Shown here: positions 50,040 to 63,441 of the stretch, one piece after another
How positions within the stretch are numbered: the stretch's first letter is position 1
How the letters are laid out: the number at the start of each line of letters is the position of its first letter
Assembly (NCBI GenBank): GCA_964360785.1
Contig: CAYHXX010000001.1
Coordinates: 260,187 to 324,186 of the forward strand
Reading direction: 5' to 3'
Length of the DNA stretch: 64,000 nt
Source of the DNA: an uncultured Gammaproteobacteria bacterium
GTDB lineage: Bacteria > Patescibacteriota > Microgenomatia > Woykebacterales > RBG-16-39-9b
The notes under the pieces: model-generated
The model's input: the letters and a program-made list of their open reading frames with translations, nothing else
The model's database searches: none
What the model was told of the DNA's origin: nothing
Made by a program: the position numbers and the translations under genes

Positions 50040-51302
50040 ATGAAAAACATCTCTTCTGAAAAAGGTCCTGAGGTTTATGAGCTTATCAACTGCCGCACTT
50101 GTGGACAAAAAACTTTAAAGACTTTTCTTCATCTCGGTCCCATGCCAATTCCTAATGGATTTGTAAAGCCTGATCAACTTGTTGAAGGAGAGGCTTACTT
50201 CCCCCTTGATGTAGCTTTCTGTAAAAATTGTGGATTGATGACCTTGGCTCACGTTGTTCGGCCAGACATTATGTTCAGTAATTATGTTTATATCCCAGGT
50301 ACTTCAACAACTATGGTTGACCATTTTGGTGAAATGGCCAAAGAAATCACCAAGCGCTTTAATCTCAATAAAGACTCACTAGTTATCGATGTTGGCAGTA
50401 ACGACGGGACTTTATTAAAACAGTTCAAATCTCTTGGGGTGAAGGTTCTTGGAATTGATCCCGCTGAAAATATTGCTAAAGAAGCAACCACACAAGGTAT
50501 AGAAACATTGGCTGAATTCTTTGGTGAAGAAGTGGCCAAGGACGTTTCTAAGAAAATAGGCCTGGCCGATGTTATTACTGGAACCAATGTTATCGCTCAT
50601 ATTGACAACTTGGTTGATGTCATGAGAGGAGTCGATGCACTCTTGAAAGACGATGGCGTCTTTATCGGCGAGTTTCCATACTTGGTTGATCTAGTTGAGC
50701 ATGGCGAGTTTGATACTATTTATCACGAACACCTCTCCTATTTTAGTATCCGCTCACTGCTCGCTCTAGCCGAAAGAACAAATTTTGAAATTTTTGATGC
50801 GCAAAGAACAAATGTCCACGGTGGTTCAATTCAAGTCTTTTTCAGAAAAAAAGGCAGGAATAAAGAACCCTTTGTCAGTGAGTTAGTAATTCTTGAGAAA
50901 GCCAAGCGACTCGACACTATCGCTCCCTTCGAAGATTTTGCAAGACGGACTTATTTAAAATGCGAAGAACTTAACGAAATTCTGAAGCAATTGAAATCCC
51001 AAGGCAAAAGAATCGTTGGTTATGGCGCAGCCGCAAAAGGCAACGTGCTAACCAACTTTTTCAGAATTGGACCAGAACTGTTAGATTATATAGTAGACTC
51101 AATTCCTTATAAGCAGGGTCTCTACACTCCGGGGCTTCATATTCCAATCTACCCAGAAACTAAACTTCTGGAAGACATGCCAGATTATGCTTTGATTTTT
51201 GCTTGGAATTTTGCAGACGAGATTGTTAAGAAAAATAGTGAGTACCGTAAAAAAGGTGGAAAGTTCATTACTACCATACCAACAATAAAGATACTTTACT
51301 AG
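50040..51302 (+). CDS. NDP-hexose C-methyltransferase-like enzyme (Zn-ribbon, SAM methyltransferase and C-methyltransferase C-domain)
   Basis: 420 aa with an N-terminal CxxC...CxxC Zn-ribbon (CRTCGQ...CKNCG), a class I SAM motif (VIDVGSNDG) and a C-terminal domain like the TylC3/C-methyltransferase family. Confidence 0.65.
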   Translation: MKNISSEKGPEVYELINCRTCGQKTLKTFLHLGPMPIPNGFVKPDQLVEGEAYFPLDVAFCKNCGLMTLAHVVRPDIMFSNYVYIPGTSTTMVDHFGEMAKEITKRFNLNKDSLVIDVGSNDGTLLKQFKSLGVKVLGIDPAENIAKEATTQGIETLAEFFGEEVAKDVSKKIGLADVITGTNVIAHIDNLVDVMRGVDALLKDDGVFIGEFPYLVDLVEHGEFDTIYHEHLSYFSIRSLLALAERTNFEIFDAQRTNVHGGSIQVFFRKKGRNKEPFVSELVILEKAKRLDTIAPFEDFARRTYLKCEELNEILKQLKSQGKRIVGYGAAAKGNVLTNFFRIGPELLDYIVDSIPYKQGLYTPGLHIPIYPETKLLEDMPDYALIFAWNFADEIVKKNSEYRKKGGKFITTIPTIKILY

Positions 51303-51336: not shown

Positions 51337-51888
51337 TTAACCGGGCTTAACTTTCCAAAAATCTTCTCCGAAAACATCCCAAGGAAGTCGTCTTTCATCC
51401 GGGTTTTCAATATTGAATTGCTGATTCACGAAGTAAAAGACATACAAAGATTCCGGTCCTAAATTAGCATACCCATGAGCCACCCCAGAGGGAATAAGAA
51501 GCATATGTGATTTACCCCCACCTAAAATTAATTTCACCTTCACATTTTTTGTTGGAGATGATTCTCTGGTGTCAACTAGTCCAACCGTCAGAACTCCGTC
51601 AGGTGGAATATACCAAAGGTCTTGCTGTTTAAAATGTAGGTGCCAAGCTTTTATTGACCCTGGCATGACTTTACTGAGGTTAATTTGTCTTAGTTGAAAA
51701 TTTTCTAACCCTTCAAAGGAACCGGAATCAGAGAGACGTCCTACTTCGCAAAGAAAACCATCTTCGGCGGTAAAATTCTTCAGTTCCCAAACCTTTACCC
51801 CATCAATTTGTTGGCTCTTTGAATAATCCTGTACTTTAATTTTTTCACGAAAATCTTTTAAGATATCTTTTTTTGTTAGTTCTTCCAT
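51337..51888 (-). CDS. RmlC-like cupin (dTDP-4-dehydrorhamnose 3,5-epimerase family)
   Basis: 183 aa cupin. It has a WHLHF..Q core and AHGY, resembling the RmlC RGLHFQ...AHGF motifs. The exact specificity is uncertain. Confidence 0.55.
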   Translation of the reverse strand: MEELTKKDILKDFREKIKVQDYSKSQQIDGVKVWELKNFTAEDGFLCEVGRLSDSGSFEGLENFQLRQINLSKVMPGSIKAWHLHFKQQDLWYIPPDGVLTVGLVDTRESSPTKNVKVKLILGGGKSHMLLIPSGVAHGYANLGPESLYVFYFVNQQFNIENPDERRLPWDVFGEDFWKVKPG

Positions 51889-51913: not shown

Positions 51914-54655
51914 TTAAACTCTAATACTAAAATCTTCTTTATCCAGAGTTAAGTTGGGATTATAGAAAGGATCATTTTCAAGAAGTTTACCCCATTTTTT
52001 CTTCATATAGCTTACTTCAGAGGCATCAACACCTCTAGTTTCGATCTTTCCCAAAGATGTTGATTCATGATGAAAGAGGACTGCCTGAGGCACGTAGACC
52101 ATTTGAAAACCCTTTGCTCTTAGTTTTAGACAGTAATCAACATCATTAAAGAGTATTCTTAAATCCTCATCAAAACCACCGACCTCAAGATAGAGGTTTC
52201 TTTTGGTTAGAAAACAGGCTCCAGTGACAGCAGAATAATTTCTATTAACGTTAACTAAACCACCATAACCAATTTCGTCAGGATAACGGTAGTACGGGTG
52301 TCCAGCAATCCTGTCCGGTCCTAAACCCAGAATAACTCCGCAATGCTGAACTTTTTTATCTCCAAACAGTAGCTTGACCCCAACTCCACCAACATCTTTA
52401 CGCTGAATATGACCAACCATTATTGATAACCAATCCTTTTTAATCGGTTCAATATCGTTTCCCAAAAGAAGAATGTACTCACCTTTCGCCTCACTCACTG
52501 CGTAATTAAAAATTTTGGGTATATGAAATGGTCTGTCGTAATCCAGAATCCTAACTTTTGGGTTTATTTTTAACTTCTCAAAATACTCGTAGGTTTCTTT
52601 TTCTATACTTTGATTATTAATAATAATAATTTCAAAGTTTTGATATGTGTTTGATAAAACTCCATCAACACAGCGCCTTAAAAAATTTACTTTATCTTTA
52701 GTTGAAATAACTATGCTTACTAGTGGCTCTTCTTTAATTGAATAAATAATGTCATAAGATCCTAAAAAGGGTCCTGGTTTTATGATTCCTGGCGTACCCC
52801 TTCTTTGTAAAGCATCGTTAATAACATCTTTATGGACTTTGTAAGCGTATGTTTTACTTCTAGGATTACCTGCAGTTGATCCACTCCACATCCGAAAACT
52901 ATAGAGAATGTTAGGTATATGATAAACTTCCTTAGTTTGTTCAACAGTCCGAAGGATATAATCCCAATCTTGGGTACCCGGGTATTTTTCATTGAAGAGG
53001 CCAATCTTATCCGCCAAGGATTTTCTCAAAGCAAGAAAATGAGTCATATACATCATGCTCAGTAGTAAGTCTGGGGAGTAGTCTGGTTTAAAGAAAGGTC
53101 CTGAATGATTTTCGTTTTCGTCTATTTTATCTTCATCACTATAAATCAAATCCGCTTTCGGATGCTCGTTCAAGACTTTAACTGTTTCGAAAAGCGCATT
53201 TGGCCAATAAATGTCATCATGGTCAAGAACCCCAATGAATTCTCCTGTCACCATCTTCAAAGCAGTATTTGAAGCAACGGATATACCACCGTTTTTTTCC
53301 CGATAAATAACCTTTATTCTCTTATCTTTCTTCTTATACTCTTCGAGAATTAACTTTATATTTTCGTCATTGGAAGCATCATCAGCAATACAAAGTTCCC
53401 AATTTTTGTAGATTTGATTTATCACAGAATCGATTGCTCTTCTTAAAAATTTTTCAGGTGTGTTATAAACTGGCAACAAGATACTTATTTTTGGCTTACT
53501 TGTAAATTTTTCTTCCTGATCCTTCATTTCTTCAATCTTTTGGGTAGTCAAAGCGTTTTTCATTAACCAATCATTATACTGAACATCCATAACTTGCGAA
53601 TAACGAAACTTGTTATAAATAGCTCTTGGACCGTACTTAAAGAGAATTTTAAAGCCTTTTTTAATTTTATCTTGATTTAAGACCACTTTTACAATTTTCT
53701 TAAATAAAGTAAAACCTTGACCGAGTTTGTAAATTCTTGTTTTTTTATACGAGTCAATCAAGATCTGAATTTCTTTAACCTCACTATTTAGTCTTTCATT
53801 TTGTTTCTGAAGTTGAGTGAAATCAAATTCTTTCTGATGAATTCTTTCTGACAGTAAACTCAATGAATCGTAAACAAATTTTTCGTAAAGATTTTCATCT
53901 TTCTTGGATTTTAAATCGTCAATGTTTAACCTATCTACCAAATTCTTGTCTTTGGTAAGAAAGTAAATCTTTCGATAAGAAGGGTCAAAACTATCCCCTA
54001 GTTTCATAAAGTTTTTATTGTAATTTTCATAATAAGCCAACGTATCTTTATCGGTTGTTTCATACACTTCCTCTAAAAAGTTAATACCCATGAACAAAAT
54101 CCAGTTATTAAGATTGTTTTGCCCTATCTTTTTGAAATAAACCCCGTTCTCCTTACAAAATTTTTCAAGCTCGGTTTCCTTTGGCAAAGTACTTTCTAAG
54201 TGTTCTTTTAACCAAGGATGCATTCTACCTAAGTTCTCATAGTAAAGATCATTCAGATAACCCTCAGCTTGTTTAACGTGGGGTGAGTAAAACGGTGCAG
54301 TTAGAATTACCCCGTATTTTGAAACTCTTAGGAGCTCTTGGATAAACTTATATTTACTCTTTTTTGGAATATGCTCCAGTGTTTCTAAAGAAGTCACAAA
54401 ATCAAAAGCCTTATCATTAAAACCGATATTTAGCGCGTCACCTTGAATATAATTTGGTTCATTGTAATCGTTTGGAAGGGTATCAAAGATTTGAATATTG
54501 TAGTTTTTTGGTAAGAACTCGTAAAGTTTGCCCCCTCTACCGCCAACATCAATTATTTTAATATCTTTATTCTCACCAGCAATTTTTTGTAATATTTTGG
54601 AGACAAAAAAATTTCGGCTATAGAGATCCGGTTGTAGTTTGATTAAATCTTTCAT
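51914..54655 (-). CDS. Multidomain glycan polymerase/terminator: class I SAM methyltransferase, coiled coil, then two GT2 domains
   Basis: 913 aa. The N-terminus has a SAM fold (IIDVGGRGG...LETLEHIP). A coiled coil spans roughly residues 230-330. GT2 domain 1 has ISILLPVYNT...DDASND...DHDD and GT2 domain 2 has VSIVISTKDK...NND. Confidence 0.75.
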   Translation of the reverse strand: MKDLIKLQPDLYSRNFFVSKILQKIAGENKDIKIIDVGGRGGKLYEFLPKNYNIQIFDTLPNDYNEPNYIQGDALNIGFNDKAFDFVTSLETLEHIPKKSKYKFIQELLRVSKYGVILTAPFYSPHVKQAEGYLNDLYYENLGRMHPWLKEHLESTLPKETELEKFCKENGVYFKKIGQNNLNNWILFMGINFLEEVYETTDKDTLAYYENYNKNFMKLGDSFDPSYRKIYFLTKDKNLVDRLNIDDLKSKKDENLYEKFVYDSLSLLSERIHQKEFDFTQLQKQNERLNSEVKEIQILIDSYKKTRIYKLGQGFTLFKKIVKVVLNQDKIKKGFKILFKYGPRAIYNKFRYSQVMDVQYNDWLMKNALTTQKIEEMKDQEEKFTSKPKISILLPVYNTPEKFLRRAIDSVINQIYKNWELCIADDASNDENIKLILEEYKKKDKRIKVIYREKNGGISVASNTALKMVTGEFIGVLDHDDIYWPNALFETVKVLNEHPKADLIYSDEDKIDENENHSGPFFKPDYSPDLLLSMMYMTHFLALRKSLADKIGLFNEKYPGTQDWDYILRTVEQTKEVYHIPNILYSFRMWSGSTAGNPRSKTYAYKVHKDVINDALQRRGTPGIIKPGPFLGSYDIIYSIKEEPLVSIVISTKDKVNFLRRCVDGVLSNTYQNFEIIIINNQSIEKETYEYFEKLKINPKVRILDYDRPFHIPKIFNYAVSEAKGEYILLLGNDIEPIKKDWLSIMVGHIQRKDVGGVGVKLLFGDKKVQHCGVILGLGPDRIAGHPYYRYPDEIGYGGLVNVNRNYSAVTGACFLTKRNLYLEVGGFDEDLRILFNDVDYCLKLRAKGFQMVYVPQAVLFHHESTSLGKIETRGVDASEVSYMKKKWGKLLENDPFYNPNLTLDKEDFSIRV

Positions 54656-55864
54656 TTATTTACCTAAACTCCATTCGGCATCAAGTTTAATAATTCCCGA
54701 TTGGTTAACTTCAGTTGAAGCCACTTTGAAACTGGGGCCCTTGTCAATAAAATCATACGCAAAAGAAACATTATAGTCGAACAGACCAACTGTGAGAAGG
54801 TAGGTTCCAGATAGCATAGGAATTTTTCTAATTTTGTAATCAACAAAACCATCTCCATTTAACTTTTTAATGGGGAAACCCGAATCCTTGGTGTTAGGTC
54901 CAGTTATATGAACACCATCTTCTTTCCTGTGAAAAGCAATACCGATAACCGGATTAACAATTTCTTTATTAGTCTGATAATAAATTCTGACGGTGAGAGA
55001 AGTTCCAGTTTCAAAAAATTCTCTTTTCTTAAAACTTACGTCGAGAAACTCCACTTTTTTAATCTTAAACTCCTTTGCTTTTGTTTTGTAATCAAACTTA
55101 CTTTCACTTTTCTTCTTTTCATGTTCTTCCATATTTAACCGCAAATACTCTAAGACTGCTTTTTGAGGAGATCCTTCAAAATAAACCTGCCCTTTATTCA
55201 TTACAATTACCCGATCACAAAATTCCTGAATTCTGCCTAAATCGTGAGAGATGAAAACAATGGTCGCTCCTATCTTCTTAAATTCCTGAAATTTTGTAAA
55301 ACTCTTTTCCTGAAAGGAAGCGTCACCAACCGATAAAACTTCATCAACCAGAAGAACCTCTGGAGCAACATTAACGGCCACTGAAAACGCAAGACGGACT
55401 TGCATTCCTGCTGAATAGAATTTTAGCTGAGTATCAATAAATTTTTCCATTTCAGAAAAAGAAATAATGTCATCAAGTTTCTTATCAATTTCCTTTTTTG
55501 TTAAACCTAAAATTGACCCGTTTAGATAGATATTTTCTATTCCAGTCAGTTCAGGATGAAAACCAGTTCCCAATTCAAATAATGTCGAGACCTTACCAAT
55601 AACCTTAATCGTCCCGCTATCAGGGTTAATTATTCTTGCTAGTACTCTAAGCAAAGTGGTTTTACCCGACCCGTTACTACCGATAATTCCCAGCGATTCA
55701 CCTTTTTTTACGTTAAAGGAAACATTTTTTAATGCCCAGAACTGCTCTACGTAAGACTTCTTTTCTTTAAAAGCCTTTGTAACCAAACCTTTTAAGGTTT
55801 CCTCTTTACCGTGAGTAATCTTAAAAATCTTACTTATATTTTTAACTTCAATTGTATTTGCCAT
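54656..55864 (-). CDS. wzt: ABC transporter ATP-binding protein Wzt with C-terminal carbohydrate-binding extension
   Basis: 402 aa with Walker A GSNGSGKTTLL, the signature LSAGMQVRL and Walker B LLVDE. A roughly 150-aa beta-rich extension follows. Confidence 0.85.
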   Translation of the reverse strand: MANTIEVKNISKIFKITHGKEETLKGLVTKAFKEKKSYVEQFWALKNVSFNVKKGESLGIIGSNGSGKTTLLRVLARIINPDSGTIKVIGKVSTLFELGTGFHPELTGIENIYLNGSILGLTKKEIDKKLDDIISFSEMEKFIDTQLKFYSAGMQVRLAFSVAVNVAPEVLLVDEVLSVGDASFQEKSFTKFQEFKKIGATIVFISHDLGRIQEFCDRVIVMNKGQVYFEGSPQKAVLEYLRLNMEEHEKKKSESKFDYKTKAKEFKIKKVEFLDVSFKKREFFETGTSLTVRIYYQTNKEIVNPVIGIAFHRKEDGVHITGPNTKDSGFPIKKLNGDGFVDYKIRKIPMLSGTYLLTVGLFDYNVSFAYDFIDKGPSFKVASTEVNQSGIIKLDAEWSLGK

Positions 55865-56638
55865 TTAAATTTCTTCTGCAAATTTTCCCTCTAATTTTCC
55901 GAACAAATAAAAACCAATTAATAAGGAGCCAAAAGTCGAAACCAGGATAACAAGCATAATTTCTTTACCCGGAAAAACATTGTCAAGAACAATATTTCTG
56001 TAAGCAGTAAGAAAAGAGGCCATTGGGTTAAGGAGATAAAATCCTGCATACTTCTCAGGAATTAGAGAGATTGGATAAAAGATTGGGCTGGCAAAATACC
56101 ACACTGGCAATGAACTCTCAACCAAAATAGGAACATCTCGAAAGAAAACGCTTAGTGCTGCTAGCATCAAAGCTATTCCAAGAACAAACAACACTTGTAA
56201 AATTAACAAAATCGGAAAGAATAGCCAAAGCAAATTCGGTAATATTTGGAAAAAAAGTAACAGAATTATTAACACAACAAGCGAAAAGATCAGTTGTATT
56301 AAGTTTCCAATTACAATTGAAATGGGGAAGATTTCCCGAGCCAGATAAATTTTCTTTATTAGACCTCCATTATCAATAATAGATCTGGAAGATTGTATTA
56401 ACGAAGAAGCGAGAAACTGCCACGCTAGTATTCCAATTAGTAAGAAGATAGGAAAGTTTTTTACACCAGCTCTGATAACGAAAGAGAAAACGATAGCCAA
56501 AACAACCAAGTTCAGCAGGGGATTAAGAAAAGACCAAATAAATCCTAAAGCAGAACCCTTATAGCGAGTTTTTAAATCTCTGGCAACAAAATTTCGTACT
56601 ACGTCACGATAGCTGTAAATTTCCTTTAATTTTTTCAT
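55865..56638 (-). CDS. wzm: ABC-2 type polysaccharide exporter permease Wzm
   Basis: 257 aa with 6 TM helices. It is translationally abutted to wzt. Confidence 0.8.
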   Translation of the reverse strand: MKKLKEIYSYRDVVRNFVARDLKTRYKGSALGFIWSFLNPLLNLVVLAIVFSFVIRAGVKNFPIFLLIGILAWQFLASSLIQSSRSIIDNGGLIKKIYLAREIFPISIVIGNLIQLIFSLVVLIILLLFFQILPNLLWLFFPILLILQVLFVLGIALMLAALSVFFRDVPILVESSLPVWYFASPIFYPISLIPEKYAGFYLLNPMASFLTAYRNIVLDNVFPGKEIMLVILVSTFGSLLIGFYLFGKLEGKFAEEI

Positions 56639-56744
56639 ATCTTTTTACTGAATTGGTATTATATCGCTCTTTACAATACATGATCCTAGCGATGTAATCG
56701 AAGACTACTGTTACTCCCTCAAGTTGCGAACACGAGTGGCGTAA

Positions 56745-57626
56745 TCACGGGTGATTATAGTTTATTAATCCTGATGTTTCAATATAATCTGCACAAGCAC
56801 TTTTCCAATCTCTTAAAACCACCCCAAGTTTCGCTGATCTTTCATTTTTTAAAACTGTATAGTTTGGTGGTTTCGAATCTCTTTCGAAATCTTGCAGTTT
56901 AATTGGTTTTATTTTTACATTAGTCATTTTCGTTAATTCAAGAATAAGTTCTGCCCATTCAAACCTTGAGGCAAATCCCCCATTGACCAAATGAAAAATC
57001 CCACTTGGACTCTTGCGAATTAATTTCTCAAGCGCTTCTGCTAAATCGGGGGTATAAGTTGGAGTGGAAATTTCATCCTCTACTACTTTCAAGAAACCCT
57101 GCTCTCTCGCTCTGTTAACTATCTTATGCGGAAAATTTGTTGTTGAGGCAGGTCCATAAAGCCAAGCAACCCGGACAATAGAACAATCTGGACCCAAGAC
57201 CGTTTCTGCATAAGTCTCTCCCAGCCTTTTCGACTTTCCATAAGGGGTTATTGGATTGGGATAATCCATTTCTAAATACGGGCTTTTTTTCTGACCATCG
57301 AAAACCTCATTTGTACTAATATAGATTAATTTAGCATTAATATTCTTCACTGCTTCGGCAACGTTTCTCGTCCCCTCACCATTAATAACCATTGCTTTTT
57401 TAGGTTCTTTTGCACAACCATCAACATCCGTCCAAGCTCCAGCATGAATAACAAAGTCAGGTCTCTCGAGCACAGTCACCTCGACCGTTTGTTTTTTGTT
57501 TGTAAAATCCAAACTATTTTTATCGGTAGCTATTACTTGAAATTTTTTCTTAAAAACGCGGACTAATTCCTTCCCGAGTTGACCACCTGCTCCCGTAATT
57601 AGGATTTTCATTTTTGTCTTCAACAA
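56745..57626 (-). CDS. rmlD: dTDP-4-dehydrorhamnose reductase
   Basis: 293 aa with the Rossmann motif ILITGAGGQLG and RmlD substrate-binding-domain similarity. Confidence 0.8.
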   Translation of the reverse strand: MLKTKMKILITGAGGQLGKELVRVFKKKFQVIATDKNSLDFTNKKQTVEVTVLERPDFVIHAGAWTDVDGCAKEPKKAMVINGEGTRNVAEAVKNINAKLIYISTNEVFDGQKKSPYLEMDYPNPITPYGKSKRLGETYAETVLGPDCSIVRVAWLYGPASTTNFPHKIVNRAREQGFLKVVEDEISTPTYTPDLAEALEKLIRKSPSGIFHLVNGGFASRFEWAELILELTKMTNVKIKPIKLQDFERDSKPPNYTVLKNERSAKLGVVLRDWKSACADYIETSGLINYNHP

Positions 57627-57690
57627 ATATCGTCCGTGTACTCTAAAATATTAAAGTTTTTCAAAACTTGCATCAGGTCGATATATTTTT

Positions 57691-58692
57691 TTACCTTTCT
57701 TGGTATTGTTTTTTGTAATATTCTTCGTACGCACCACTTTTAAGCGGCTTCCACCACCATTCATTTTCCTGATACCACTTGATTGTCATTTTAATACCTT
57801 CTTCAAACGTTATTTTTGGTTCCCAAGAAAGTTCTTTTCTTAACTTAGTACTATCAATACTATAGCGACGATCGTGTCCAGGTCGGTCCTTAACCGGCTC
57901 AATGTAAGATTTATCTTTCCCAAAATTACTTACTAGTAGCTCGGCAATTTCTTTATTTGCTATTTTTTCTCCAGTACCAATGTTATAAACCTGTCCAACC
58001 TTACCTTCGTGCAAGATTGTATCGATTGCTTCGCAATGATCACTCGTGAAAATCCACTCGCGCACATTTAAACCATCGCCGTAAAGCGGGACTTTTTTAT
58101 TTTCAACCAAGTTAGTAATAAAAAGAGAGATTAATTTTTCTGGGTATTGGTTTGGTCCATAGAAATTACAGCTGTGAGTAACTACTACTGGAACCTTGTG
58201 GGTCTCAAAATAAGCCCGGCACAGCAAGTCTCCTCCGGCTTTTGACGCTGCATAGGGGCTATTTGGCTGGAAAGAGCTACTTTCAGTAAAACTCCCCTCT
58301 TCTATCGAACCAAAGACCTCATCCGTAGAGATCTGTACCATCTTTTTTACTTGGTTTTCTTTGACTGCATCGAGTAAACTCAGAGTTCCAATCACATCGG
58401 TTTTAGCAAAGTCATAAGCGTTAAGAATTGAACGATCGACATGAGTCTCAGCTGCGTAGTTGATAACTGTATCAACTCCTTTGGTAACTTCTTTAACTTT
58501 CTTGGTATCAGTAATGTCACCTTTAATAAATTGGTAATTGGAGTTATTTTCAACTTCTCTAAGATTACTTGGGTTACCAGCGTAAGTTAATTTGTCGTAA
58601 TTAATTATTTTGTAATCTGGATATTTTTTGAGAACGTGTTTAATAAAATGGGACCCCATAAATCCCGCCCCTCCTGTTATCAAGATCTTCAT
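57691..58692 (-). CDS. rmlB: dTDP-glucose 4,6-dehydratase
   Basis: 333 aa beginning MKILITGGAGFMGSHF with the extended SDR YxxxK motif (YAASKAG). Confidence 0.9.
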   Translation of the reverse strand: MKILITGGAGFMGSHFIKHVLKKYPDYKIINYDKLTYAGNPSNLREVENNSNYQFIKGDITDTKKVKEVTKGVDTVINYAAETHVDRSILNAYDFAKTDVIGTLSLLDAVKENQVKKMVQISTDEVFGSIEEGSFTESSSFQPNSPYAASKAGGDLLCRAYFETHKVPVVVTHSCNFYGPNQYPEKLISLFITNLVENKKVPLYGDGLNVREWIFTSDHCEAIDTILHEGKVGQVYNIGTGEKIANKEIAELLVSNFGKDKSYIEPVKDRPGHDRRYSIDSTKLRKELSWEPKITFEEGIKMTIKWYQENEWWWKPLKSGAYEEYYKKQYQER

Positions 58693-59459
58693 CTTTCCTT
58701 TCCCTGATTAAAATTGGTAAGTCCTTTTTCTGTTTCCTTACCTAAACGCTTTCTTGTCCAAAAGACGTTTGTTCTGTACAAACTTTCGAAAGTACCGGCA
58801 TCAGACCAAAAACCATCGAGCTCTGCCCAGCGCATTTTTCCAGAATCAATGTAACGATTATTAACGTCTGTAATTTCCATTTCGCCTCGATCAGAAGGTT
58901 TATTCATCCGGATGTAATCAAAAACCTTGTTATCATATACGTAAAGCCCAGTCACGGCTAGATTGTTTGCCGGCTTAGCTGGCTTCTCCTCAATTTGAAT
59001 TATTTTACTGTTGTCAGATTTATCAAAAACTGGAACCCCAAACCTTTGAGGGTCGGTAACTTCTTTAAGAAAAACTAAAGACCCTTCATCAAACTCTTTC
59101 ACCTCTTTTTTAATATCAGCGTCAGTACAGTTGTCTCCCAGAATAACAGCAACAGAGTCTTTACCAACGAAGTCCTCACAAAGTTTTAGTGCCTCAGCAA
59201 TACCACCTTCTCCTTCTTGATAGGCATACTCTAAATGGTCAACTCCAAAATCCTCACCATTTTTTAGCACGTGTAGGAAATCTCCGGCGTGTGGCCCACC
59301 CGTCACAATAATAATTTCTTTAATACCGGCATTAACCAATGTTTGAATTGGGTAGTAAACCATCGGTTTATCAAAAACCGGAAGTAAGTGTTTGTTTGTT
59401 GCGTGGGTTAGTGGGTAAAGTCGAGTCCCTTTACCACCAGCCAGTATGGCACCCTTCAT
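58689..59459 (-). CDS. rmlA: Glucose-1-phosphate thymidylyltransferase
   Basis: 256 aa beginning MKGAILAGGKGTRLYPLT...KHLLPVFDKPMVYYP, nearly colinear with RmlA though slightly short at the C-terminus. Confidence 0.85.
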   Translation of the reverse strand: MKGAILAGGKGTRLYPLTHATNKHLLPVFDKPMVYYPIQTLVNAGIKEIIIVTGGPHAGDFLHVLKNGEDFGVDHLEYAYQEGEGGIAEALKLCEDFVGKDSVAVILGDNCTDADIKKEVKEFDEGSLVFLKEVTDPQRFGVPVFDKSDNSKIIQIEEKPAKPANNLAVTGLYVYDNKVFDYIRMNKPSDRGEMEITDVNNRYIDSGKMRWAELDGFWSDAGTFESLYRTNVFWTRKRLGKETEKGLTNFNQGKER

Positions 59460-59533
59460 ATAGTGTTTAATTCTAACATATCACGCTACTGATCTTTACA
59501 GCGGTTATTTGTCATCAATTCTAATCACTTGTG

Positions 59534-60526
59534 TTAGTGGAAAAAGCTCTCTAATGAATTCTTGAAATTCTTTAAAGCTTTTGCCAGCTTCCAAGTACGA
59601 GAAATTTTAATTGAGTTTAATTCACTTTGAGCCAAACTAAGTTTGTTAACAACAGCTGTTTGTTCTTTAAGCTTTTGCCTAATTTCCTCGATTTCTCTTA
59701 CTTGACTTCTAAGACCGTCAATCTCATTGAAGACTGAAAAATGAGGATAGGAGGAAAGTACTTTAGGTTTATCTAAATCTTTAAATCTTTTTTTTGTTTG
59801 CCCACTAATTTCTGTTTGGAACTTCTCTTCAAACCTAAAGTAACTCCTAAGATCCTTTAATTTCGGAAAATAATTATCGTAAATTTTCTTTGGAACAAGC
59901 ATTTCGGGAATTATTTCAACTACTGGGTAATTCGTAGAAGTTTTAAATGCCACCACAGCTCCTACGTTCATAAAACTATAAAAGAGAGACCTAAAAAAAA
60001 TAAATTCCAAAGGGATAGGGTCCTTAGTTACCCATTCATAGTCAAAAAGATAAATCTCCTTATCCTTCCTACTTAGATTGTCCATGTTAAAATCTAGACA
60101 TGTGGTACTTAAGCATCTTACCTTTTCTTCTGGAAATTTACCGAAATTCTTAACCAGCCTTTCATCAGTGTTGCTTACCAATTGTGTTGGTAGCTTGTCC
60201 AACAAGGCTTTAAAGTCTTCAATTATCCTCTGTACCTCTTTTTCACCTTTGTCAATATACGCCTCATTAAATTCGTCTAAAAAAGTCCTACCTCTAATAA
60301 AATCAAAGACTAAACTCCCATCTTGAAACTTTGGTTCAACCAAACGGATCACACCTAACTTACCTTGCAAACTTTTGTAATTGGTTTCTAAGTTACGCAG
60401 GTGTCTTTTTGCGAGTGGGTTTTCAGCTCGCTTTCTAACAAAGGTTCTATCTTCACTAGTTTCTATAGTTGTTATTATTCGAAATCGTTCAGCTCGATTT
60501 GAATTTAGTTTTGCGTATTTAATCAT
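59534..60526 (-). CDS. Kinase-like protein with C-terminal coiled coil; candidate WbdD-like chain terminator or ruler subunit
   Basis: 330 aa containing LDFNMDN (DxxxxN) and LFDYEW, which resemble the Brenner and ID(W/Y)E motifs of APH/choline-kinase folds. The C-terminal 60 aa are heptad-rich. It overlaps the upstream methyltransferase gene by 8 nt. Confidence 0.4.
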   Translation of the reverse strand: MIKYAKLNSNRAERFRIITTIETSEDRTFVRKRAENPLAKRHLRNLETNYKSLQGKLGVIRLVEPKFQDGSLVFDFIRGRTFLDEFNEAYIDKGEKEVQRIIEDFKALLDKLPTQLVSNTDERLVKNFGKFPEEKVRCLSTTCLDFNMDNLSRKDKEIYLFDYEWVTKDPIPLEFIFFRSLFYSFMNVGAVVAFKTSTNYPVVEIIPEMLVPKKIYDNYFPKLKDLRSYFRFEEKFQTEISGQTKKRFKDLDKPKVLSSYPHFSVFNEIDGLRSQVREIEEIRQKLKEQTAVVNKLSLAQSELNSIKISRTWKLAKALKNFKNSLESFFH

Positions 60527-61433
60527 CGGTGTCCTTCTGGGCGAAGACTAGAAATGAGTTTGCAAAATCTCCAAATAACCCATTCTTAGCCAGACTCCCA
60601 CCAACTACATCTTCTGGGAAGAAGTACTCCCTAGACATGGAAAGATCCTTCGTTGGGAAAACCCCACTTGAAAAAGCTTTGTCCCTAACTGGTAGGAAGT
60701 GGTCGGAAAAAATTTCGATTGGTAATTTATAGTCTGGTAAAGGATAGTACCAGTCGAGTACTTTGTACTTTGCTTGTTTAAGTAAATTATTTAATTCCAA
60801 TTTACCATATGTTTTGATTTTCGAGTCCCCTAAATAGCCTGTTATTGAGTCGAATCCTACTCCTGTGTGATCCTCACGACATCCGGACCAATACTTCAAC
60901 CCTAATCTATTCTCGATCGCTAAGATTAGTTTGCCTGTCGGTCTTAAATAATTACCTAGATTTTTCAGAAATTTAAGTTGTGGTGCTTCTCCAGAAATAT
61001 ATACTCCAGCATATTCCAAAACGCCAACGCAAACAACATAATCAAATTTTTTTCTCACAGATAGATTTTCTATATTCCCTGATAAAACTGTCAAGTTCTC
61101 TTTGTGAACAAATCTTTGTTTGATAACTTTTGATCTTTTTTCTGTAAGTTCCAGAGCTGTTACAGATTTAAGCCTCTCACAAAATAAACCAGTTAAAGCC
61201 CCGCACCCTGCCCCAACTTCCAGTAATGATGATTCTTTGGGAAAAGGATACCAGTTCAAAAGATTCTGCCGTTGTGGGGATAAGTGATACCTCAATGGCC
61301 AGCTTAAATCAGTCTGTAGTAAACTGTTGATCTTTTCATCCGTTCCGGGACTGGAAAAAAGTTCCAAAAGCTCTTCTTCGGAAGAGTCCTGATAGTCTTT
61401 TTGCCTATCTGCTTTTTCATTTACCTTGTTCAT
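60519..61433 (-). CDS. Class I SAM-dependent methyltransferase
   Basis: 304 aa with motif I LEVGAGCGALTG and an acidic loop ALELTE. It is co-transcribed with the kinase-like gene. Confidence 0.65.
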   Translation of the reverse strand: MNKVNEKADRQKDYQDSSEEELLELFSSPGTDEKINSLLQTDLSWPLRYHLSPQRQNLLNWYPFPKESSLLEVGAGCGALTGLFCERLKSVTALELTEKRSKVIKQRFVHKENLTVLSGNIENLSVRKKFDYVVCVGVLEYAGVYISGEAPQLKFLKNLGNYLRPTGKLILAIENRLGLKYWSGCREDHTGVGFDSITGYLGDSKIKTYGKLELNNLLKQAKYKVLDWYYPLPDYKLPIEIFSDHFLPVRDKAFSSGVFPTKDLSMSREYFFPEDVVGGSLAKNGLFGDFANSFLVFAQKDTDD

Positions 61434-61462
61434 AGTTCAGCAAGTTTAGTTAAATTTATAAG

Positions 61463-62704
61463 TTACAGCTCAGACCAAGTATGTGATAAAATCGAAACAC
61501 CTCTTTGAGAGGTCTTGCTGTCAACGACAAATTTCCCAACTTTTCCGATTAAATCATATGGTTGGGTTTCAACTAAACCAAAAATAACAACATTATAGTA
61601 GTACTCACCCCTATTTAAGGGCAATTTATTAACCCTCAAAATTATCTTATTTTGAGCAACAACGTCAAATTTGTCCATTTTAGTATTTACCCCAAAACAA
61701 TACTCGTCTTTTTCTGAGTAAACCCCAATACCTATATTTATCGGACGTACTGACTTTTTTACCTTAAAATTGAAAACAAAGTTATAATCTTTACCTGACT
61801 CAAGTAGATTTACTTCTTTACCCTTTGAATCAAGTATCTGCAAGGAGTTAAATATTATTTCGCCACTACCCCAACGATTACCTTGCCCCCTACCTTTCAG
61901 ATACTCACCTCTGTTATCCATAGTATCTCTTTGGTACATATTCATAACTTTTCCTGTTTCTCCCACACCTATTACTCTCCCATTAGAAAGGTAAGCCACC
62001 CTGTCACTAAATTCTTCAATTGAACCAAGGTTATGGCTAACAAAAACAACCGTCTTTCCTTTAGCTTTAAATTCTTTGAACTTATCAAAACATTTTCTTT
62101 GAAAAAGAACATCTCCTACTGCTAAAACTTCGTCAACCAAAAGTATTTCTGGATCATTCTGAATAGCAATCGAGAAAGCTAACCTAACCTGCATTCCTGA
62201 GGAGAAATTCTTTAGTTTTTGGTCGAGAAAATTCTCAAGCTCAGAAAACTTTACAATTTCATCAAATTTACTGTCAGTCTGCTTTCGCGACATTCCCAAA
62301 ATAGCCGCATTCAGATAAATATTTTCCCGAGCCGTAAGCTCTGGATTAAACCCAACCCCAAGTTCGATAAATGGCGACAAAGATCCGTTAATCGTTACTT
62401 TTCCTGAAGTCGGCTGATATATACCTGCTAAAATTTTTAGCAACGTGGATTTCCCTGAACCATTGGCACCAATGAGACCAAAAAACTCACCTTTTTTTAT
62501 TTCGAATGAAACATCGTCAAGGGCTCTGAATTTTTCGTAACTCTTTGGATTGAAAATATTCACGAAATGCTGCTTTACTGTCGAAAGTTTTTCATGAGGC
62601 AACTTAAAAACTTTTGACACATTTTCAACCTTAATTATTGCTTTAGTTTCTTTTTCCACTAGATCTCCTCCGCAAAGTTCTTTGAAGAACTGTTGAATAA
62701 CCAA
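61463..62704 (-). CDS. wzt: Second ABC transporter ATP-binding protein Wzt, with C-terminal carbohydrate-binding extension
   Basis: 413 aa with Walker A GANGSGKSTLL, the signature SSGMQVRL and Walker B LLVDE. A roughly 160-aa C-terminal beta-rich domain is present. Confidence 0.85.
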   Translation of the reverse strand: MVIQQFFKELCGGDLVEKETKAIIKVENVSKVFKLPHEKLSTVKQHFVNIFNPKSYEKFRALDDVSFEIKKGEFFGLIGANGSGKSTLLKILAGIYQPTSGKVTINGSLSPFIELGVGFNPELTARENIYLNAAILGMSRKQTDSKFDEIVKFSELENFLDQKLKNFSSGMQVRLAFSIAIQNDPEILLVDEVLAVGDVLFQRKCFDKFKEFKAKGKTVVFVSHNLGSIEEFSDRVAYLSNGRVIGVGETGKVMNMYQRDTMDNRGEYLKGRGQGNRWGSGEIIFNSLQILDSKGKEVNLLESGKDYNFVFNFKVKKSVRPINIGIGVYSEKDEYCFGVNTKMDKFDVVAQNKIILRVNKLPLNRGEYYYNVVIFGLVETQPYDLIGKVGKFVVDSKTSQRGVSILSHTWSEL

Positions 62705-63441
62705 ATACCGAAAATGAAAACACTAGCTACGATTACTAAACTAACAAATGCCAATGGTAAACCCATCGCACTCCAGGTAGTTGTAAAATCCCTTGAGATT
62801 AGAACCCATCGAGCATCTTGAATTATTTGAGTCACTGGATTTAACATCACCAACCACTTAAGAGAGTCTGGGATAAAGGCCACGGGATAAATGATCGGAA
62901 CTGCATAAAACCCAACCTGCAGGACAACTTCCCAAATATGAGAGAAATCGCGAAACTTTGTGTAAAATGTCGAAAGAATTAGACTTAAACCAATAATAAA
63001 GATAATTAACTCAATTATTAAAGGAATTAGTAATAAAGCATGGAAATCTGGAATAATCCTTGAAAAGATTAAGAAGACAAAAATAATAATTAAGTTAAGT
63101 ATAAAAGTTAAAACCGAGGTAATAACAGCTGAAAGAACAATTACGAGTTTTGGAAAGTTAACTTTCCGGAGCAGTTCTCCTCTACCAACTATAGAATGCA
63201 TCCCACCCATAGTCGCCTCAGCAAAAAACGACCAAAACATGATACCTACCAATAGATACACTGGGTAATTAGCAATCCCCTTACCTAGGTTGAAGAAATA
63301 GGTGAAAACAACGTAAAGCACCCCAAAAAAAAGTAACGGCTTCACCAAGGACCAAATGTAACCTAAAATTGATCCTGAATATTTAAGTTTAAAATCAGTT
63401 AGGGCGAGTTGGAGTGTGAGATTAATGTAATTTTTCTTCAT
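62659..63441 (-). CDS. wzm: Second ABC-2 type exporter permease Wzm
   Basis: 260 aa, six TM helices. It overlaps the wzt start. Confidence 0.8.
   Translation of the reverse strand: MKKNYINLTLQLALTDFKLKYSGSILGYIWSLVKPLLFFGVLYVVFTYFFNLGKGIANYPVYLLVGIMFWSFFAEATMGGMHSIVGRGELLRKVNFPKLVIVLSAVITSVLTFILNLIIIFVFLIFSRIIPDFHALLLIPLIIELIIFIIGLSLILSTFYTKFRDFSHIWEVVLQVGFYAVPIIYPVAFIPDSLKWLVMLNPVTQIIQDARWVLISRDFTTTWSAMGLPLAFVSLVIVASVFIFGIWLFNSSSKNFAEEI

Follow-up and report, generated by a model that had tools for sequence, protein, structure and literature searches.

Among the closest described systems is that of Klebsiella pneumoniae O7, in which ORF6 carries a methyltransferase, a kinase, a coiled coil and two GT2 modules and works with a Wzm/Wzt-CBM exporter (Kelly et al., J Biol Chem 2024, PMC11231755); ORF6 orthologues that end after the coiled coil also exist (PMC11231755). 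The WbdD protein of Escherichia coli O9a and K. pneumoniae O3 is organized as methyltransferase–kinase–coiled coil, while that of E. coli O8 is a methyltransferase only, and in these systems the methyl or methyl-phosphate cap halts polymerisation and licenses export via the carbohydrate-binding domain of Wzt (PMC3482155). The S-layer glycan cluster of Geobacillus stearothermophilus NRS 2004/3a contains wzm-wzt-wsaE and rmlACBD, and the 2-O-methyl cap there is the work of WsaE, which joins a 2-O-methyltransferase to two rhamnosyltransferase domains (PMC2943079). That a monoderm can carry a cap containing phosphate is known from the rhamnose-rich S-layer glycan of Clostridioides difficile SLCT-11, which has a 2,3-cyclophospho-rhamnose cap and is exported by an ABC transporter, its terminator enzyme not being identified in that study (PMC6254364). 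In the Pseudomonas syringae ‘TET’ operon, transport, elongation and termination genes make up a module that can be exchanged and has an evolutionary history of its own (PMC7820976).

The present work concerns a 64,000-nucleotide stretch of DNA (the window) whose host, an ultra-small, Saccharimonadales-like groundwater bacterium of the CPR (Patescibacteria), is unlike K. pneumoniae of the monoderm type and no producer of LPS. Domain, fold and comparative evidence supports the presence of two Wzm/Wzt exporters with carbohydrate-binding domains, each with its own capping module, with probable methyl capping by one set and methyl-phosphate capping by the other. Each of these terminate-and-export kits is of a known kind; what is unusual is that both lie in one locus, and that one of them lacks sugar-adding enzymes.

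Organization of the locus

The minus strand from 39.4 to 63.4 kb is best explained as a single ABC-transporter-dependent locus for a rhamnose-containing, polyprenol-linked surface glycan. Set 2, a four-gene, 3.9-kb cassette, lies between cofD and rmlA. The latter, a glucose-1-phosphate thymidylyltransferase gene (58689..59459; Pfam NTP_transferase, E 1e-55) whose product is 83-84% identical to its counterparts in the comparison loci L012, L014 and L019, is followed by rmlB (dTDP-glucose 4,6-dehydratase, 57691..58692; Pfam GDP_Man_Dehyd/Epimerase) and rmlD (dTDP-4-dehydrorhamnose reductase, 56745..57626; Pfam RmlD_sub_bind, E 2e-77). The best promoter-like match of the region, at 56782-56754 just upstream of wzm1, is a consensus match only, at 11 of 12 positions. 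Beyond the genes of set 1 comes an rmlC-like dTDP-sugar epimerase/isomerase gene (183 aa, 51337..51888), which matches NCBIfam rmlC at E 2e-9, below the family cut-off, and for which PF00908 is on record in the identical gene of L002.

The remainder of the locus begins with an NDP-hexose C-methyltransferase gene on the opposite (plus) strand (420 aa, 50040..51302; Pfam Methyltransf_13 and Methyltransf_14; 76-83% identity in L012 and L010) and returns to the minus strand with GT2_542 (48287..49915), a GT2-GT2 paralogue without a terminator domain that shares 31% identity with the 913-aa protein of set 1 over residues 360-904 of the latter. There follow GT2_275 (275 aa, 47455..48282; Pfam Glycos_transf_2), a 380-aa GT4 (46310..47452; Pfam Glycos_transf_1), a 313-aa metallophosphoesterase (45357..46298; Pfam Metallophos; 55% identical to its L012 counterpart), a 335-aa polysaccharide deacetylase (44334..45341; Pfam Polysacc_deac_1), a 379-aa GT4 (43137..44276; Pfam Glycos_transf_1), a ManC-like mannose-1-phosphate guanylyltransferase (42055..43140; Pfam NTP_transferase and ManC_GMP_beta-helix), an initiating phosphoglycosyl transferase (41339..42037; Pfam Bac_transf, E 2e-59) and, at the distal end, a 637-aa DUF4012 protein (39426..41339; Pfam DUF4012), a conserved locus end found in the equivalent place in L010 and L013. 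As in G. stearothermophilus, the rml genes lie within the cluster, the initiating enzyme is of the Bac_transf/WbaP type and not WecA, and the host is monoderm; unlike that cluster, the 64-kb window yielded no WsaB-like oligosaccharyltransferase, nor was an O-antigen ligase or LCP ligase found in it.

The two exporters

All of the open reading frames named in the preliminary description, including two wzm/wzt pairs, exist on the minus strand. Each Wzt gene is preceded by a Wzm gene with a Pfam ABC2_membrane domain, wzm1 (257 aa, 55865..56638) standing before wzt1 (402 aa, 54656..55864) and wzm2 (260 aa, 62659..63441; E 6e-14) before wzt2 (61463..62659). Both Wzt proteins carry ABC_tran followed by the C-terminal carbohydrate-binding extension that had been proposed for them, which is recognized as Pfam Wzt_C at 72 bits in Wzt1 (residues 263-392, E 6e-20) and 71 bits in Wzt2 (E 1e-19), against a cut-off of 30.4 bits. 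Both retain intact Walker A, signature and Walker B motifs, and the full-length Wzt of Aquifex aeolicus (8dku/7k2t) can be aligned with both from the nucleotide-binding domain into the carbohydrate-binding domain. The frame first given for wzt2 (61463..62704, 413 aa) is probably over-extended at its TTG start (62704), and translation almost certainly begins at a GTG at 62659 (398 aa). In favour of this GTG are its overlap with the stop codon of wzm2 (TAGTG) and a Shine-Dalgarno-like GGAGGAG lying 6 nt before it; the gene is called at 398 aa in two of three replicate assemblies and at 384 aa in the third.

Measured by percent identity, the pairs are not recent duplicates, with 41% between the two Wzt proteins (51% in the nucleotide-binding domains and 24-25% in the carbohydrate-binding domains) and 32% between the two Wzm proteins. 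The earlier suggestion of a duplicated and diverging system is rejected because the listed Wzt2 homologues from other organisms, at 60% to 44% identity, are all closer to Wzt2 than Wzt1 is, and because the two sets have separate orthologues in different relatives: Wzm2 is 75-77% identical to the Wzm of L018 and L019 and Wzt2 is 60% identical to a Woykebacteria Wzt, while Wzm1 has counterparts in L012 and L010 at 59-65% identity, and Wzt1 matches the Wzt of L010 at 71% and that of L012 at 60%. It is extremely unlikely that the two exporters represent an assembly artefact or a recent tandem duplication of a single system, for which the side-by-side arrangement alone speaks. An artefact is refuted because the gene order is identical in three independent replicate assemblies from Hainich groundwater well H52 (99.96-100% identity in alignments with the window), as well as in a Logan assembly; recent duplication is refuted by the divergence of the pairs and the closer outside homologues, and no repeats were found flanking the set-2 cassette.

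The two capping modules

Pair 1 adjoins, as first described, a 913-aa methyltransferase–coiled coil–GT2–GT2 protein (51914..54655; Pfam), so that set 1 resembles G. stearothermophilus in its order of wzm, wzt and methyltransferase-GT2-GT2 in abutting frames, a comparison made by layout and not by sequence. The order Wzm, Wzt, 913-aa protein, rmlC is retained in three other organisms (L010/L014, L011 and L012). The glycosyltransferase modules have homologues in modules 1 and 2 of O7 ORF6, which are dTDP-Rha-dependent, at 39% and 40% identity respectively. The N-terminal methyltransferase of this resident polymerase is unrelated to that of ORF6; stand-alone counterparts at 37-42% identity are MT317 (L019) and MT364 (L017). 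As the resident set, set 1 would polymerise its chain with the two GT2 modules and cap the non-reducing end with the methyltransferase on the same polypeptide, the cap probably being an O-methyl group by analogy with known systems, and the Wzt1 carbohydrate-binding domain would then admit only capped chains to the transporter. A set-1-type methyltransferase need not be a terminator that has an exporter to itself, however, since both types of methyltransferase and a kinase, yet only one wzm/wzt pair, occur in the Woykebacteria locus L017.

Pair 2 adjoins a methyltransferase and a kinase-like coiled-coil protein, again as first described. The four genes of set 2 are tightly coupled: wzm2 and wzt2 overlap by 1 nt, a 29-nt gap separates wzt2 from MT304 (60519..61433), and MT304 overlaps KinCC330 (59534..60526) by 8 nt. 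MT304 is a 304-aa SAM methyltransferase (Pfam Methyltransf_11/12/25) with an intact SAM-binding motif I, is 52-59% identical to its partners in L008, L009 and L017, and is homologous to the methyltransferase domain of O7 ORF6 (33% over 299 aa, E 4e-36, the ORF6 sequence being machine-read from Fig. S9 of PMC11231755). KinCC330 (330 aa) consists of a kinase-fold domain (approximately residues 1-255) and a coiled-coil tail (265-329), and ends in an S-R-x-W-K-L motif. The fold, which is among the results obtained here, is confidently predicted to be aminoglycoside-kinase-like, and the catalytic residues K32, D145, N150 and D162 are intact and invariant in 40 relatives. An HMM alone gave no significant match between KinCC330 and the O7 kinase, while hhalign gave a probability of 81% with the O7-family kinase segment, for which the sequences were noisy, partial and machine-read from PDF. 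Tails of this kind connect terminator and polymerase in relatives where the two are fused, and that of KinCC330 aligns in register with the coiled-coil region of the 913-aa protein, both directly and via the protein P0042, whose residues 1-352 align to all of KinCC330 and whose residues 282-946 align to residues 264-913 of the 913-aa protein. A methyltransferase and a kinase-like domain are fused or neighbouring in 35 of 38 genome loci, and a Wzt with a carbohydrate-binding domain accompanies them in L006, L008 and L017 and likewise in 11 of the 38.

The proposal that this methyltransferase and kinase-like protein form a capping module is supported, with the K. pneumoniae O7 terminator and not E. 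coli WbdD as the nearest match, no similarity of the set-2 proteins to WbdD being found with single sequences or family profiles. MT304 and KinCC330 together resemble the methyl-phosphate terminator reported for O7 in 2024 (PMC11231755), divided here between two proteins, and share with it the homologous methyltransferase, a catalytic D-x4-N loop followed by a coiled coil, and an accompanying Wzt with a carbohydrate-binding domain. They differ from ORF6 in that the methyltransferase and the kinase-coiled-coil protein are separate polypeptides, neither fused to a polymerase, and in that the KinCC330 model lacks an immunoglobulin-like module between kinase and coiled coil; the locus also differs from that of O7 in that a further Wzm/Wzt pair, which has a carbohydrate-binding domain of its own, is part of it. 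By homology or analogy, from which the chemistry of both caps is assigned, KinCC330 would phosphorylate the terminal sugar and MT304 would methylate the phosphate, giving the methyl-phosphate cap made by O7 ORF6. We infer that each Wzt carbohydrate-binding domain recognizes its own cap, the divergent domain of Wzt2 recognizing methyl-phosphate. By analogy, the window would follow the cap-then-export logic of the WbdD systems, with a coiled coil attached to the terminator, and its two sets mirror the contrast between O8 (methyl) and O9a (methyl-phosphate). Unlike WbdD, for which a Src-like fold is reported, the window kinase has a predicted fold nearest to APH/choline-kinase-type enzymes; its coiled coil has about 65 residues, compared to about 250 in WbdD, and the polymerases are of the GT2 rhamnosyltransferase type rather than GT4 mannosyltransferases.

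Origin of set 2 and the chains on which it acts

Comparative genomics of the locus, which had been put forward as a check, found set 1 to be conserved in relatives and set 2 to be missing from some of them. Three relatives have a single exporter. In L012 cofD is followed directly by rmlA, in L014 other genes lie upstream of rmlA, and in L019, the closest relative (SecA 88% identical), there is only one exporter. Two Wzt genes occurred together in none of 31 metagenome Wzt loci, each at least 8 kb long. From these comparisons set 2 would be best explained as an add-on cassette and set 1 as the resident set. The Wzt of L019, which sits with a set-1-type methyltransferase, has the nucleotide-binding domain closest to that of Wzt2 (75%), yet a carbohydrate-binding domain resembling that of Wzt1 (38%). 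The Wzt2 carbohydrate-binding domain has its two closest relatives, at 155 and 115 bits, in the kinase-linked loci L017 and L008, but across all 28 scorable loci kinase-linked Wzt proteins are no more Wzt2-like in this domain (Mann-Whitney p = 0.99); the link between domain and terminator type holds only among the nearest relatives. Modules are shuffled among the relatives of the window, which suggests exchangeable modules like those of P. syringae, although the P. syringae module, unlike set 2, includes the elongating glycosyltransferase and is present only once in each locus. In the source contig, the epimerase-cofD pair has a Y1 transposase gene upstream of it.

Most likely, two cap-specific termination and export routes act on rhamnose-containing glycans, and we think it rather probable that set 2 acts on chains of the locus's own GT2-GT2 polymerase family. 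Since none of the four set-2 genes encodes a glycosyltransferase and the kinase has a coiled-coil tail of the polymerase-linking type, set 2 most likely uses GT2-GT2 chains made by the locus; and since the downstream glycosyltransferase complement equals that of L010/L013, whose recovered contigs show one exporter, both routes may act on chains of the same polymerase family. Given the missing glycosyltransferase and the shared complement, the two distinct surface polymers of the preliminary description do not follow, although it is possible, with clearly less likelihood, that set 1 exports the rhamnan of the 913-aa polymerase while another backbone, built by GT2_542, GT2_275 and the two GT4 enzymes with GDP-mannose supplied by ManC, or by genes elsewhere in the genome, is terminated and exported by set 2. 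In its favour, every polymerase-terminator complex of the characterised systems works with a single exporter (PMC11231755, PMC3482155), the locus has in GT2_542 a polymerase-type paralogue that lacks a terminator domain, it also encodes ManC and two GT4 enzymes, and the set-2-type loci L009, L017 and L018 carry their own GT2-epimerase-GT4 trio. However, because GT2_542, GT2_275, both GT4 enzymes, ManC and the initiating transferase have orthologues in L010/L013, they are not additions that accompanied set 2; the first module of GT2_542 is degenerate, with ‘QSGD’ in place of the DHDD (DXD) motif and about 33 aa missing (its second module shows 44% identity to module 2 of O7); and members of this terminator family are joined to, or lie beside, GT2-GT2 homologues of the 913-aa protein, as in L008 (47%) and in O7 (39-40%).

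The absence from the window of the trio found behind the set-2 genes in L009, L017 and L018, along with the transposase and the shuffling of modules, would also fit a functionless or redundant leftover of locus recombination, in which set 2 is a half-transferred transport-elongation-termination module now bereft of glycosyltransferases and the cell makes a single capped glycan. This is improbable: the four reading frames are intact and closely coupled, all of the catalytic motifs checked (the ABC motifs, SAM-binding motif I and the four kinase residues) are preserved, the three replicate assemblies contain no disrupting variant in their aligned parts, and a reduced genome is unlikely to retain 3.9 kb of dead genes. 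We infer, in keeping with the favoured reading of two routes that share a polymerase, that both sets are expressed; the cell would then display two glycan populations, differently capped and separately exported. What speaks against a shared polymerase is that the 913-aa protein already has a terminator as part of its own chain, with which that of set 2 would be in competition.

The two exporters and their setting

The glycan locus occupies 39.4-63.4 kb of the window, and nearly every gene in it lies on the minus strand according to the ORF and Pfam reading. In transcription order it begins with set 2, which consists of wzm2 (62659-63441, minus), directly followed by wzt2 (61463-62659, minus), the gene for the 304-aa SAM methyltransferase MT304 (60519-61433, minus) and that for KinCC330, a 330-aa kinase-fold protein with a coiled-coil tail (59534-60526, minus). 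After rmlA, rmlB and rmlD, in that order, comes set 1, which comprises wzm1 (55865-56638, minus), wzt1 (54656-55864, minus) and the gene for a 913-aa methyltransferase/GT2/GT2 protein (51914-54655, minus); an rmlC-like gene (51337-51888, minus) and, on the opposite strand, a C-methyltransferase gene (50040-51302, plus) come next. The distal part contains two GT2 genes, a GT4 gene, genes for a metallophosphoesterase and a polysaccharide deacetylase and a second GT4 gene, and ends with the genes for ManC, a Bac_transf initiating transferase and a DUF4012 protein. The locus is flanked by RecO and a dcw/peptidoglycan cluster on one side and by CofD on the other.

Both exporters appear complete. 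The ABC-2 permease family PF01061 is matched by both Wzm proteins (E 2e-14 and 6e-14) and PF00005 by the nucleotide-binding domains of both Wzt proteins, in which the Walker A motif (GSNGSGKT and GANGSGKS), the signature and Walker B motifs (SxGMQVRLAF and LLVDEVL) and the H-loop (ISH and VSH) are intact; the solved structures closest to these domains are Aquifex aeolicus Wzt and TagH/TarH. The C-terminal extensions that had been described for the two Wzt proteins are borne out by matches to Wzt_C (PF14524) of 72 and 71 bits against a cut-off of 30.4, and their similarity to carbohydrate-binding modules was upheld when checked: both proteins align to full-length A. aeolicus Wzt into its carbohydrate-binding domain, and there are weak direct matches to solved Wzt carbohydrate-binding domains, namely 5hno for both proteins and 8dky/7k2t for Wzt2 only.

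The preliminary description placed a cap module of its own beside each Wzm/Wzt pair, and this arrangement is found, as a methyltransferase-GT2-GT2 protein in set 1 and as a methyltransferase plus a kinase-like coiled-coil protein in set 2. Its gene coordinates are confirmed except for the start of wzt2, which is better placed at a GTG codon at 62659 that overlaps the stop of wzm2 (TAGTG) and has GGAGGAG 6 nt upstream. This start, which yields a 398-aa Wzt2, is also called in two of three replicate assemblies. The wzm2 and wzt2 reading frames consequently share 1 nt, while those of wzm1 and wzt1 abut with zero gap.

The source sample was 0.1-µm-filtered groundwater from Hainich well H52. Gene order is identical in the three replicate assemblies and in a Logan assembly, the replicates align to the window at 99.96-100% identity, and the two Wzt and the two Wzm proteins are only 41% and 32% identical, so that an assembly artefact or a near-identical tandem copy does not account for the paired exporters. 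The suggestion that the system had been duplicated can also be rejected, because the homologues of Wzt2 found elsewhere, at 44-60% identity among the matches listed, are all nearer to Wzt2 than Wzt1 is; those with names, among the same matches, are mostly from CPR bacteria, for example Woykebacteria, Saccharimonadales and Moranbacteria. The divergence between Wzt1 and Wzt2 is unevenly distributed, with 51% identity in the nucleotide-binding domain and 24-25% in the carbohydrate-binding domain.

The SecA, epimerase and CofD encoded on the source contig are 79%, 80% and 73% identical to their counterparts in L018, a Candidatus Saccharimonadales assembly, and 88%, 85% and 78% identical to those in a second relative, L019. 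On these identities the host is a Saccharimonadales-like CPR bacterium with peptidoglycan genes. It is expected to live attached to another organism. Its dcw/peptidoglycan cluster includes two FtsW/RodA-family genes and a PMT_2 (GT-C fold) glycosyltransferase gene by ftsZ (1659-2735, 10116-11648 and 15751-16911). The LCP, O-antigen-ligase and oligosaccharyltransferase families were found nowhere in the window, no acceptor ligase was identified in it, and tRNA and Rfam scans across it returned no match.

A scan for promoters and terminators gave match counts near those of shuffled sequence, and operon boundaries could therefore not be drawn. The best sigma-70-like match (56754-56782, minus; TTGAAA, 17-nt spacer, TATAAT, 11 of 12 positions) falls in the 3' end of rmlD, just 5' of wzm1. 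Such matches are, overall, no more frequent than in shuffled sequence; were this one real, set 1 would have a promoter of its own.

The predicted caps

The 913-aa protein of set 1 is composed of an N-terminal class I methyltransferase, a helical linker and two GT2 modules (Pfam spans at residues 18-117, 391-551 and 646-870). Its GT2 modules are 39% and 40% identical to modules 1 and 2 of ORF6-O7, the methyltransferase-kinase-coiled-coil-GT2-GT2 enzyme of Klebsiella pneumoniae O7, as compared with the fragments of that sequence available in the supplement of PMC11231755; dTDP-rhamnose dependence has been shown experimentally for both ORF6-O7 modules (PMC11231755). The same succession of genes, wzm-wzt-polymerase-rmlC, is present in three further organisms (L010/L013/L014, L011 and L012), in which the polymerase is 67%, 50% and 47% identical to the 913-aa protein, respectively, and the exporters are orthologous to set 1 (Wzt 48-71%, Wzm 39-65%).

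[quoted passage not shown] The analogy is with the S-layer glycan cluster of Geobacillus stearothermophilus, in which WsaE combines a methyltransferase with two rhamnosyltransferase domains, synthesises a rhamnan and caps it by 2-O-methylation, and in which Wzt has been proposed to bind the capped chain (PMC2943079). In set 1, likewise, the gene that follows wzm-wzt encodes a methyltransferase and two GT2 modules as a single polypeptide, and rmlA, rmlB, rmlD and rmlC are nearby. Since the gene layout is that of the WsaE cluster, a methyl group is, purely by analogy, the best inference for the set 1 cap.

The cap predicted for set 2 is of a different kind. MT304 is 33% identical to the methyltransferase domain of ORF6-O7 over 299 aa (E 4e-36) and 36% identical to an orthologue from Cyanobacterium stanieri, both reference sequences being noisy machine readings of Fig. 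S9 of PMC11231755, and it has all of the signature motifs of the family (YHLS…, LE(I/V)GAGCGA, GVLEYA, AIEN.LGLKY..G..EDH, P.PDYKLP and ANSFL). At the level of sequence, these similarities demonstrate the homology of MT304 to the O7 methyltransferase.

The domain that directly follows the methyltransferase, in KinCC330, has an aminoglycoside-kinase-like fold and a catalytic Asp in an AlphaFold2 model built on a 40-sequence alignment (a single-sequence run gave a pLDDT of 39 and was unusable), and the model places the coiled coil in helices 265-307 and 310-329 with pLDDT >90. Comparison of the KinCC330 family with the O7 kinase by hhalign, which had about 130 noisy N-terminal residues of the latter to work with, gave 81% probability and E 1.2e-5 over 88 columns, in register and beginning right after the methyltransferase; an HMM search of the same segment with the window kinase family model was not significant. 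Homology of KinCC330 to the O7 kinase is thus supported by predicted fold and position, and weakly by sequence.

No Pfam or NCBIfam model covers the KinCC330 kinase domain family, and a word-indexed search for homologues of KinCC330 retrieved nothing beyond KinCC330. An exhaustive phmmer search returned 1475 relatives (representatives, E ≤ 1e-3), mostly stand-alone proteins of about 330 aa, together with some of about 650 aa that have an N-terminal methyltransferase and others of about 930-1080 aa in which the kinase domain is followed by GT2-GT2.

In the window the methyltransferase and kinase are carried on two polypeptides, encoded by ORFs that overlap by 8 nt, and a divided arrangement is also seen in six of the compared loci (L008, L009, L017, L020, L021 and L030). 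Because of the two ORFs, MT304 and KinCC330 are classed as an O7-type methyltransferase-kinase terminator in split form, for which a methyl-phosphate product is predicted.

In WbdD of E. coli O9a a methyltransferase, a kinase and a coiled coil are combined, and the Wzt carbohydrate-binding domain reads the methyl-phosphate cap (PMC3482155); set 2 would have an equivalent methyltransferase-kinase-coiled-coil-cap logic. The KinCC330 model, unlike WbdD, does not have the eukaryotic (Src-like) protein kinase fold. An identification as a WbdD homologue was rejected, no WbdD chain being present among the PDB matches listed for KinCC330, MT304 or the kinase family profile. The last of these matched coiled-coil proteins only, over the coiled-coil stretch, and a profile of the fused methyltransferase-kinase family matched generic methyltransferases only, WbdD being absent among the best 60 of 102 matches.

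Set 2 as an addition to the locus

At the site of the 3.9-kb cassette, L012 has rmlA immediately after cofD. In L014 different sugar-nucleotide genes precede rmlA, and L019, the closest relative, has a single exporter. The glycosyltransferases, deacetylase, ManC and initiating transferase encoded 3' of set 1 all have orthologues in L010/L013, whose recovered contigs show one exporter, so that no glycosyltransferase was gained by the window with set 2. A GT2-epimerase-GT4 trio that follows the methyltransferase or kinase gene in L009, L017 and L018 is absent from the window. On these comparisons set 2 is an add-on without any glycosyltransferase of its own.

Among 31 unrelated metagenome Wzt loci, each at least 8 kb long, there was none with two Wzt genes, and there was none among the other fetched loci scanned for Wzt. 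The cassette shows no sign of recent mobility: direct or inverted repeats at its flanks are no more than chance would give, and its G+C content is not anomalous. Just outside the window past cofD, at L001:4491-5054 on the source contig, there is an IS200/IS605-type Y1 transposase gene, with secA on one side and, on the other, the epimerase-cofD pair that lies ahead of wzm2, a position at which L018 and L019 have none.

The two sets are linked through their coiled-coil regions. In P0042, a kinase-coiled-coil-GT2-GT2 protein, residues 1-352 align to all of KinCC330 and residues 282-946 to the stretch 264-913 of the 913-aa protein. A direct alignment of the KinCC330 tail with the linker of the 913-aa protein shows a common motif, S-[KR]-x-[WY]-K-L. 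MT317, a stand-alone methyltransferase of L019 that shares 37% identity with the methyltransferase at the N-terminus of the 913-aa protein, has at its end the same coiled coil and an 'SRSWK' tail. By these alignments, terminator-plus-coiled-coil units are modular, and can be fused to, or encoded apart from, GT2-GT2 polymerases of one family. Because of this modularity, the favoured reading is that set 2 acts on chains made by the family of polymerases that the locus already encodes. A less likely alternative would be a second backbone made by GT2_542, a GT2-GT2 protein encoded at 48287-49915, and the GT4 enzymes; the locus does encode these, and they are part of the glycosyltransferase complement that has orthologues beside one exporter in L010/L013.

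Within the favoured reading of a shared polymerase family, a full scheme of one polymerase, two competing terminators and two gated exporters can be put forward, although as a whole it is rather unlikely. KinCC330 would use its coiled coil and S-R-x-W-K-L tail to dock on the 913-aa polymerase, at the homologous coiled coil of the latter, and the same growing rhamnan would be ended either by the polymerase's own methyltransferase, with a methyl cap, or from outside by KinCC330 and MT304, with a methyl-phosphate cap. Each cap would route the chain to its own exporter, gated by the carbohydrate-binding domain, and the two capped populations could differ in chain length or final acceptor. If this is true, a cap-plus-exporter cassette free of glycosyltransferases would be a portable 'plug-in' that diversifies the surface glycan of a minimal genome.

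Cap-gated export is a quality-control step of ABC-transporter-dependent glycan assembly. The components of the locus are of known kinds, namely the carbohydrate-binding Wzm/Wzt exporter, the WsaE/ORF6-C-type rhamnan polymerase with a methyltransferase and the O7-type methyltransferase-kinase terminator. What is unusual is that a single locus has two terminator/exporter sets of different kinds, whereas the prototypes compared have one terminator and one exporter per locus, that set 2 has no glycosyltransferase and a terminator divided over two proteins, and that such a locus occurs in a CPR bacterium. The question is raised of whether a terminator/exporter pair added to an existing polymerase can generate a second glycoform. 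As regards CPR biology, the locus points to an elaborate surface coat that is rich in rhamnose and possibly has two components.

GT2_542 (minus strand) is paralogous to the GT2-GT2 portion of the 913-aa polymerase. Its first module lacks about 33 residues and the DXD motif (it has 'QSGD'), while its second module is intact, and the protein may have a single transferase activity or act as a scaffold. The C-methyltransferase encoded at 50040-51302 (plus) is of the NDP-hexose type (Methyltransf_13/14), is among the most conserved products of the locus (76-83% identity in relatives) and faces the divergent RmlC-like cupin gene at 51337-51888 (minus), whose score is far under the NCBIfam rmlC cut-off. 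The two together hint at a C-methyl-branched 6-deoxyhexose in the glycan.

Relatives of the terminator and of the carbohydrate-binding domains

In the near relatives, the carbohydrate-binding domain tracks the type of terminator and not the lineage of the nucleotide-binding domain. The best two matches to the Wzt2 domain, in L017 (48%, 155 bits) and L008 (39%, 115 bits), are both kinase-linked, and the best matches to the Wzt1 domain with known gene context (L010, L012, L019 and L011) all occur with a set-1-type methyltransferase. The Wzt of L019 (L019:10001-11203) adjoins such a methyltransferase; in the nucleotide-binding domain it is, of the Wzt proteins compared, the one closest to Wzt2, with 75% identity against 50% to Wzt1, while in the carbohydrate-binding domain it shares 38% identity with Wzt1 and 23% with Wzt2. 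Its chimeric appearance suggests that carbohydrate-binding domains have been swapped between exporter lineages.

A general association of Wzt2-domain similarity with kinase linkage was rejected, since similarity was not higher in 13 kinase-linked than in 15 unlinked loci (p = 0.99), and the relationship is confined to the two nearest relatives. L017 has both methyltransferase types, including the set-1-type MT364, but one wzm/wzt. Given the result over the 28 loci and the mixed types of L017, the pairing of domain with terminator is no more than suggestive, and supports the predicted recognition of the cap, on which export would depend, indirectly.

The O7-type methyltransferase-kinase terminator was characterised as recently as 2024, in proteobacteria and cyanobacteria (PMC11231755). 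An MT304-family scan of species-representative genomes gave 38 loci, in hosts that include Lachnospiraceae (among them the cultured Lachnospira eligens BIOML-A1), Ruminococcaceae, Desulfosporosinus, Campylobacterales and Methanobrevibacter; the same scan seeded with the single KinCC330 sequence gave no genome-contig locus. With the window and these loci, the range of the terminator is extended to CPR bacteria, many Lachnospiraceae and Methanobrevibacter. In 35 of the 38 loci a kinase-like domain either is part of the methyltransferase protein or has its gene directly after that of the methyltransferase, one of the three exceptions being cut off by a contig end, and a Wzt with a carbohydrate-binding domain is encoded within 10 kb in 11 of them. 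Judged by this gene context, the methyltransferase-kinase pair is a unit that is often found beside such a Wzt. It may also modify glycans that exit by other routes, because most kinase-family loci (L020-L057) have no Wzm/Wzt within 10 kb.

Individual loci illustrate the forms that the unit takes. A fused methyltransferase-kinase-coiled-coil protein adjoins wzt/wzm in L006, L008 has wzt, a methyltransferase 53% identical to MT304 and a kinase-coiled-coil-GT2-GT2 protein, and in L017, from Woykebacteria, the methyltransferase, kinase, Wzm and Wzt are 54%, 31%, 62% and 60% identical to those of set 2. The methyltransferase and kinase homologues of L017 (L017:7258-9134, GCA_001816975.1) lie where the public record lists no gene, and the methyltransferase gene holds a run of N. 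In two Lachnospiraceae loci (L024:7320-11542 and L039:9440-12895), fused methyltransferase-kinase genes occur as a tandem pair.
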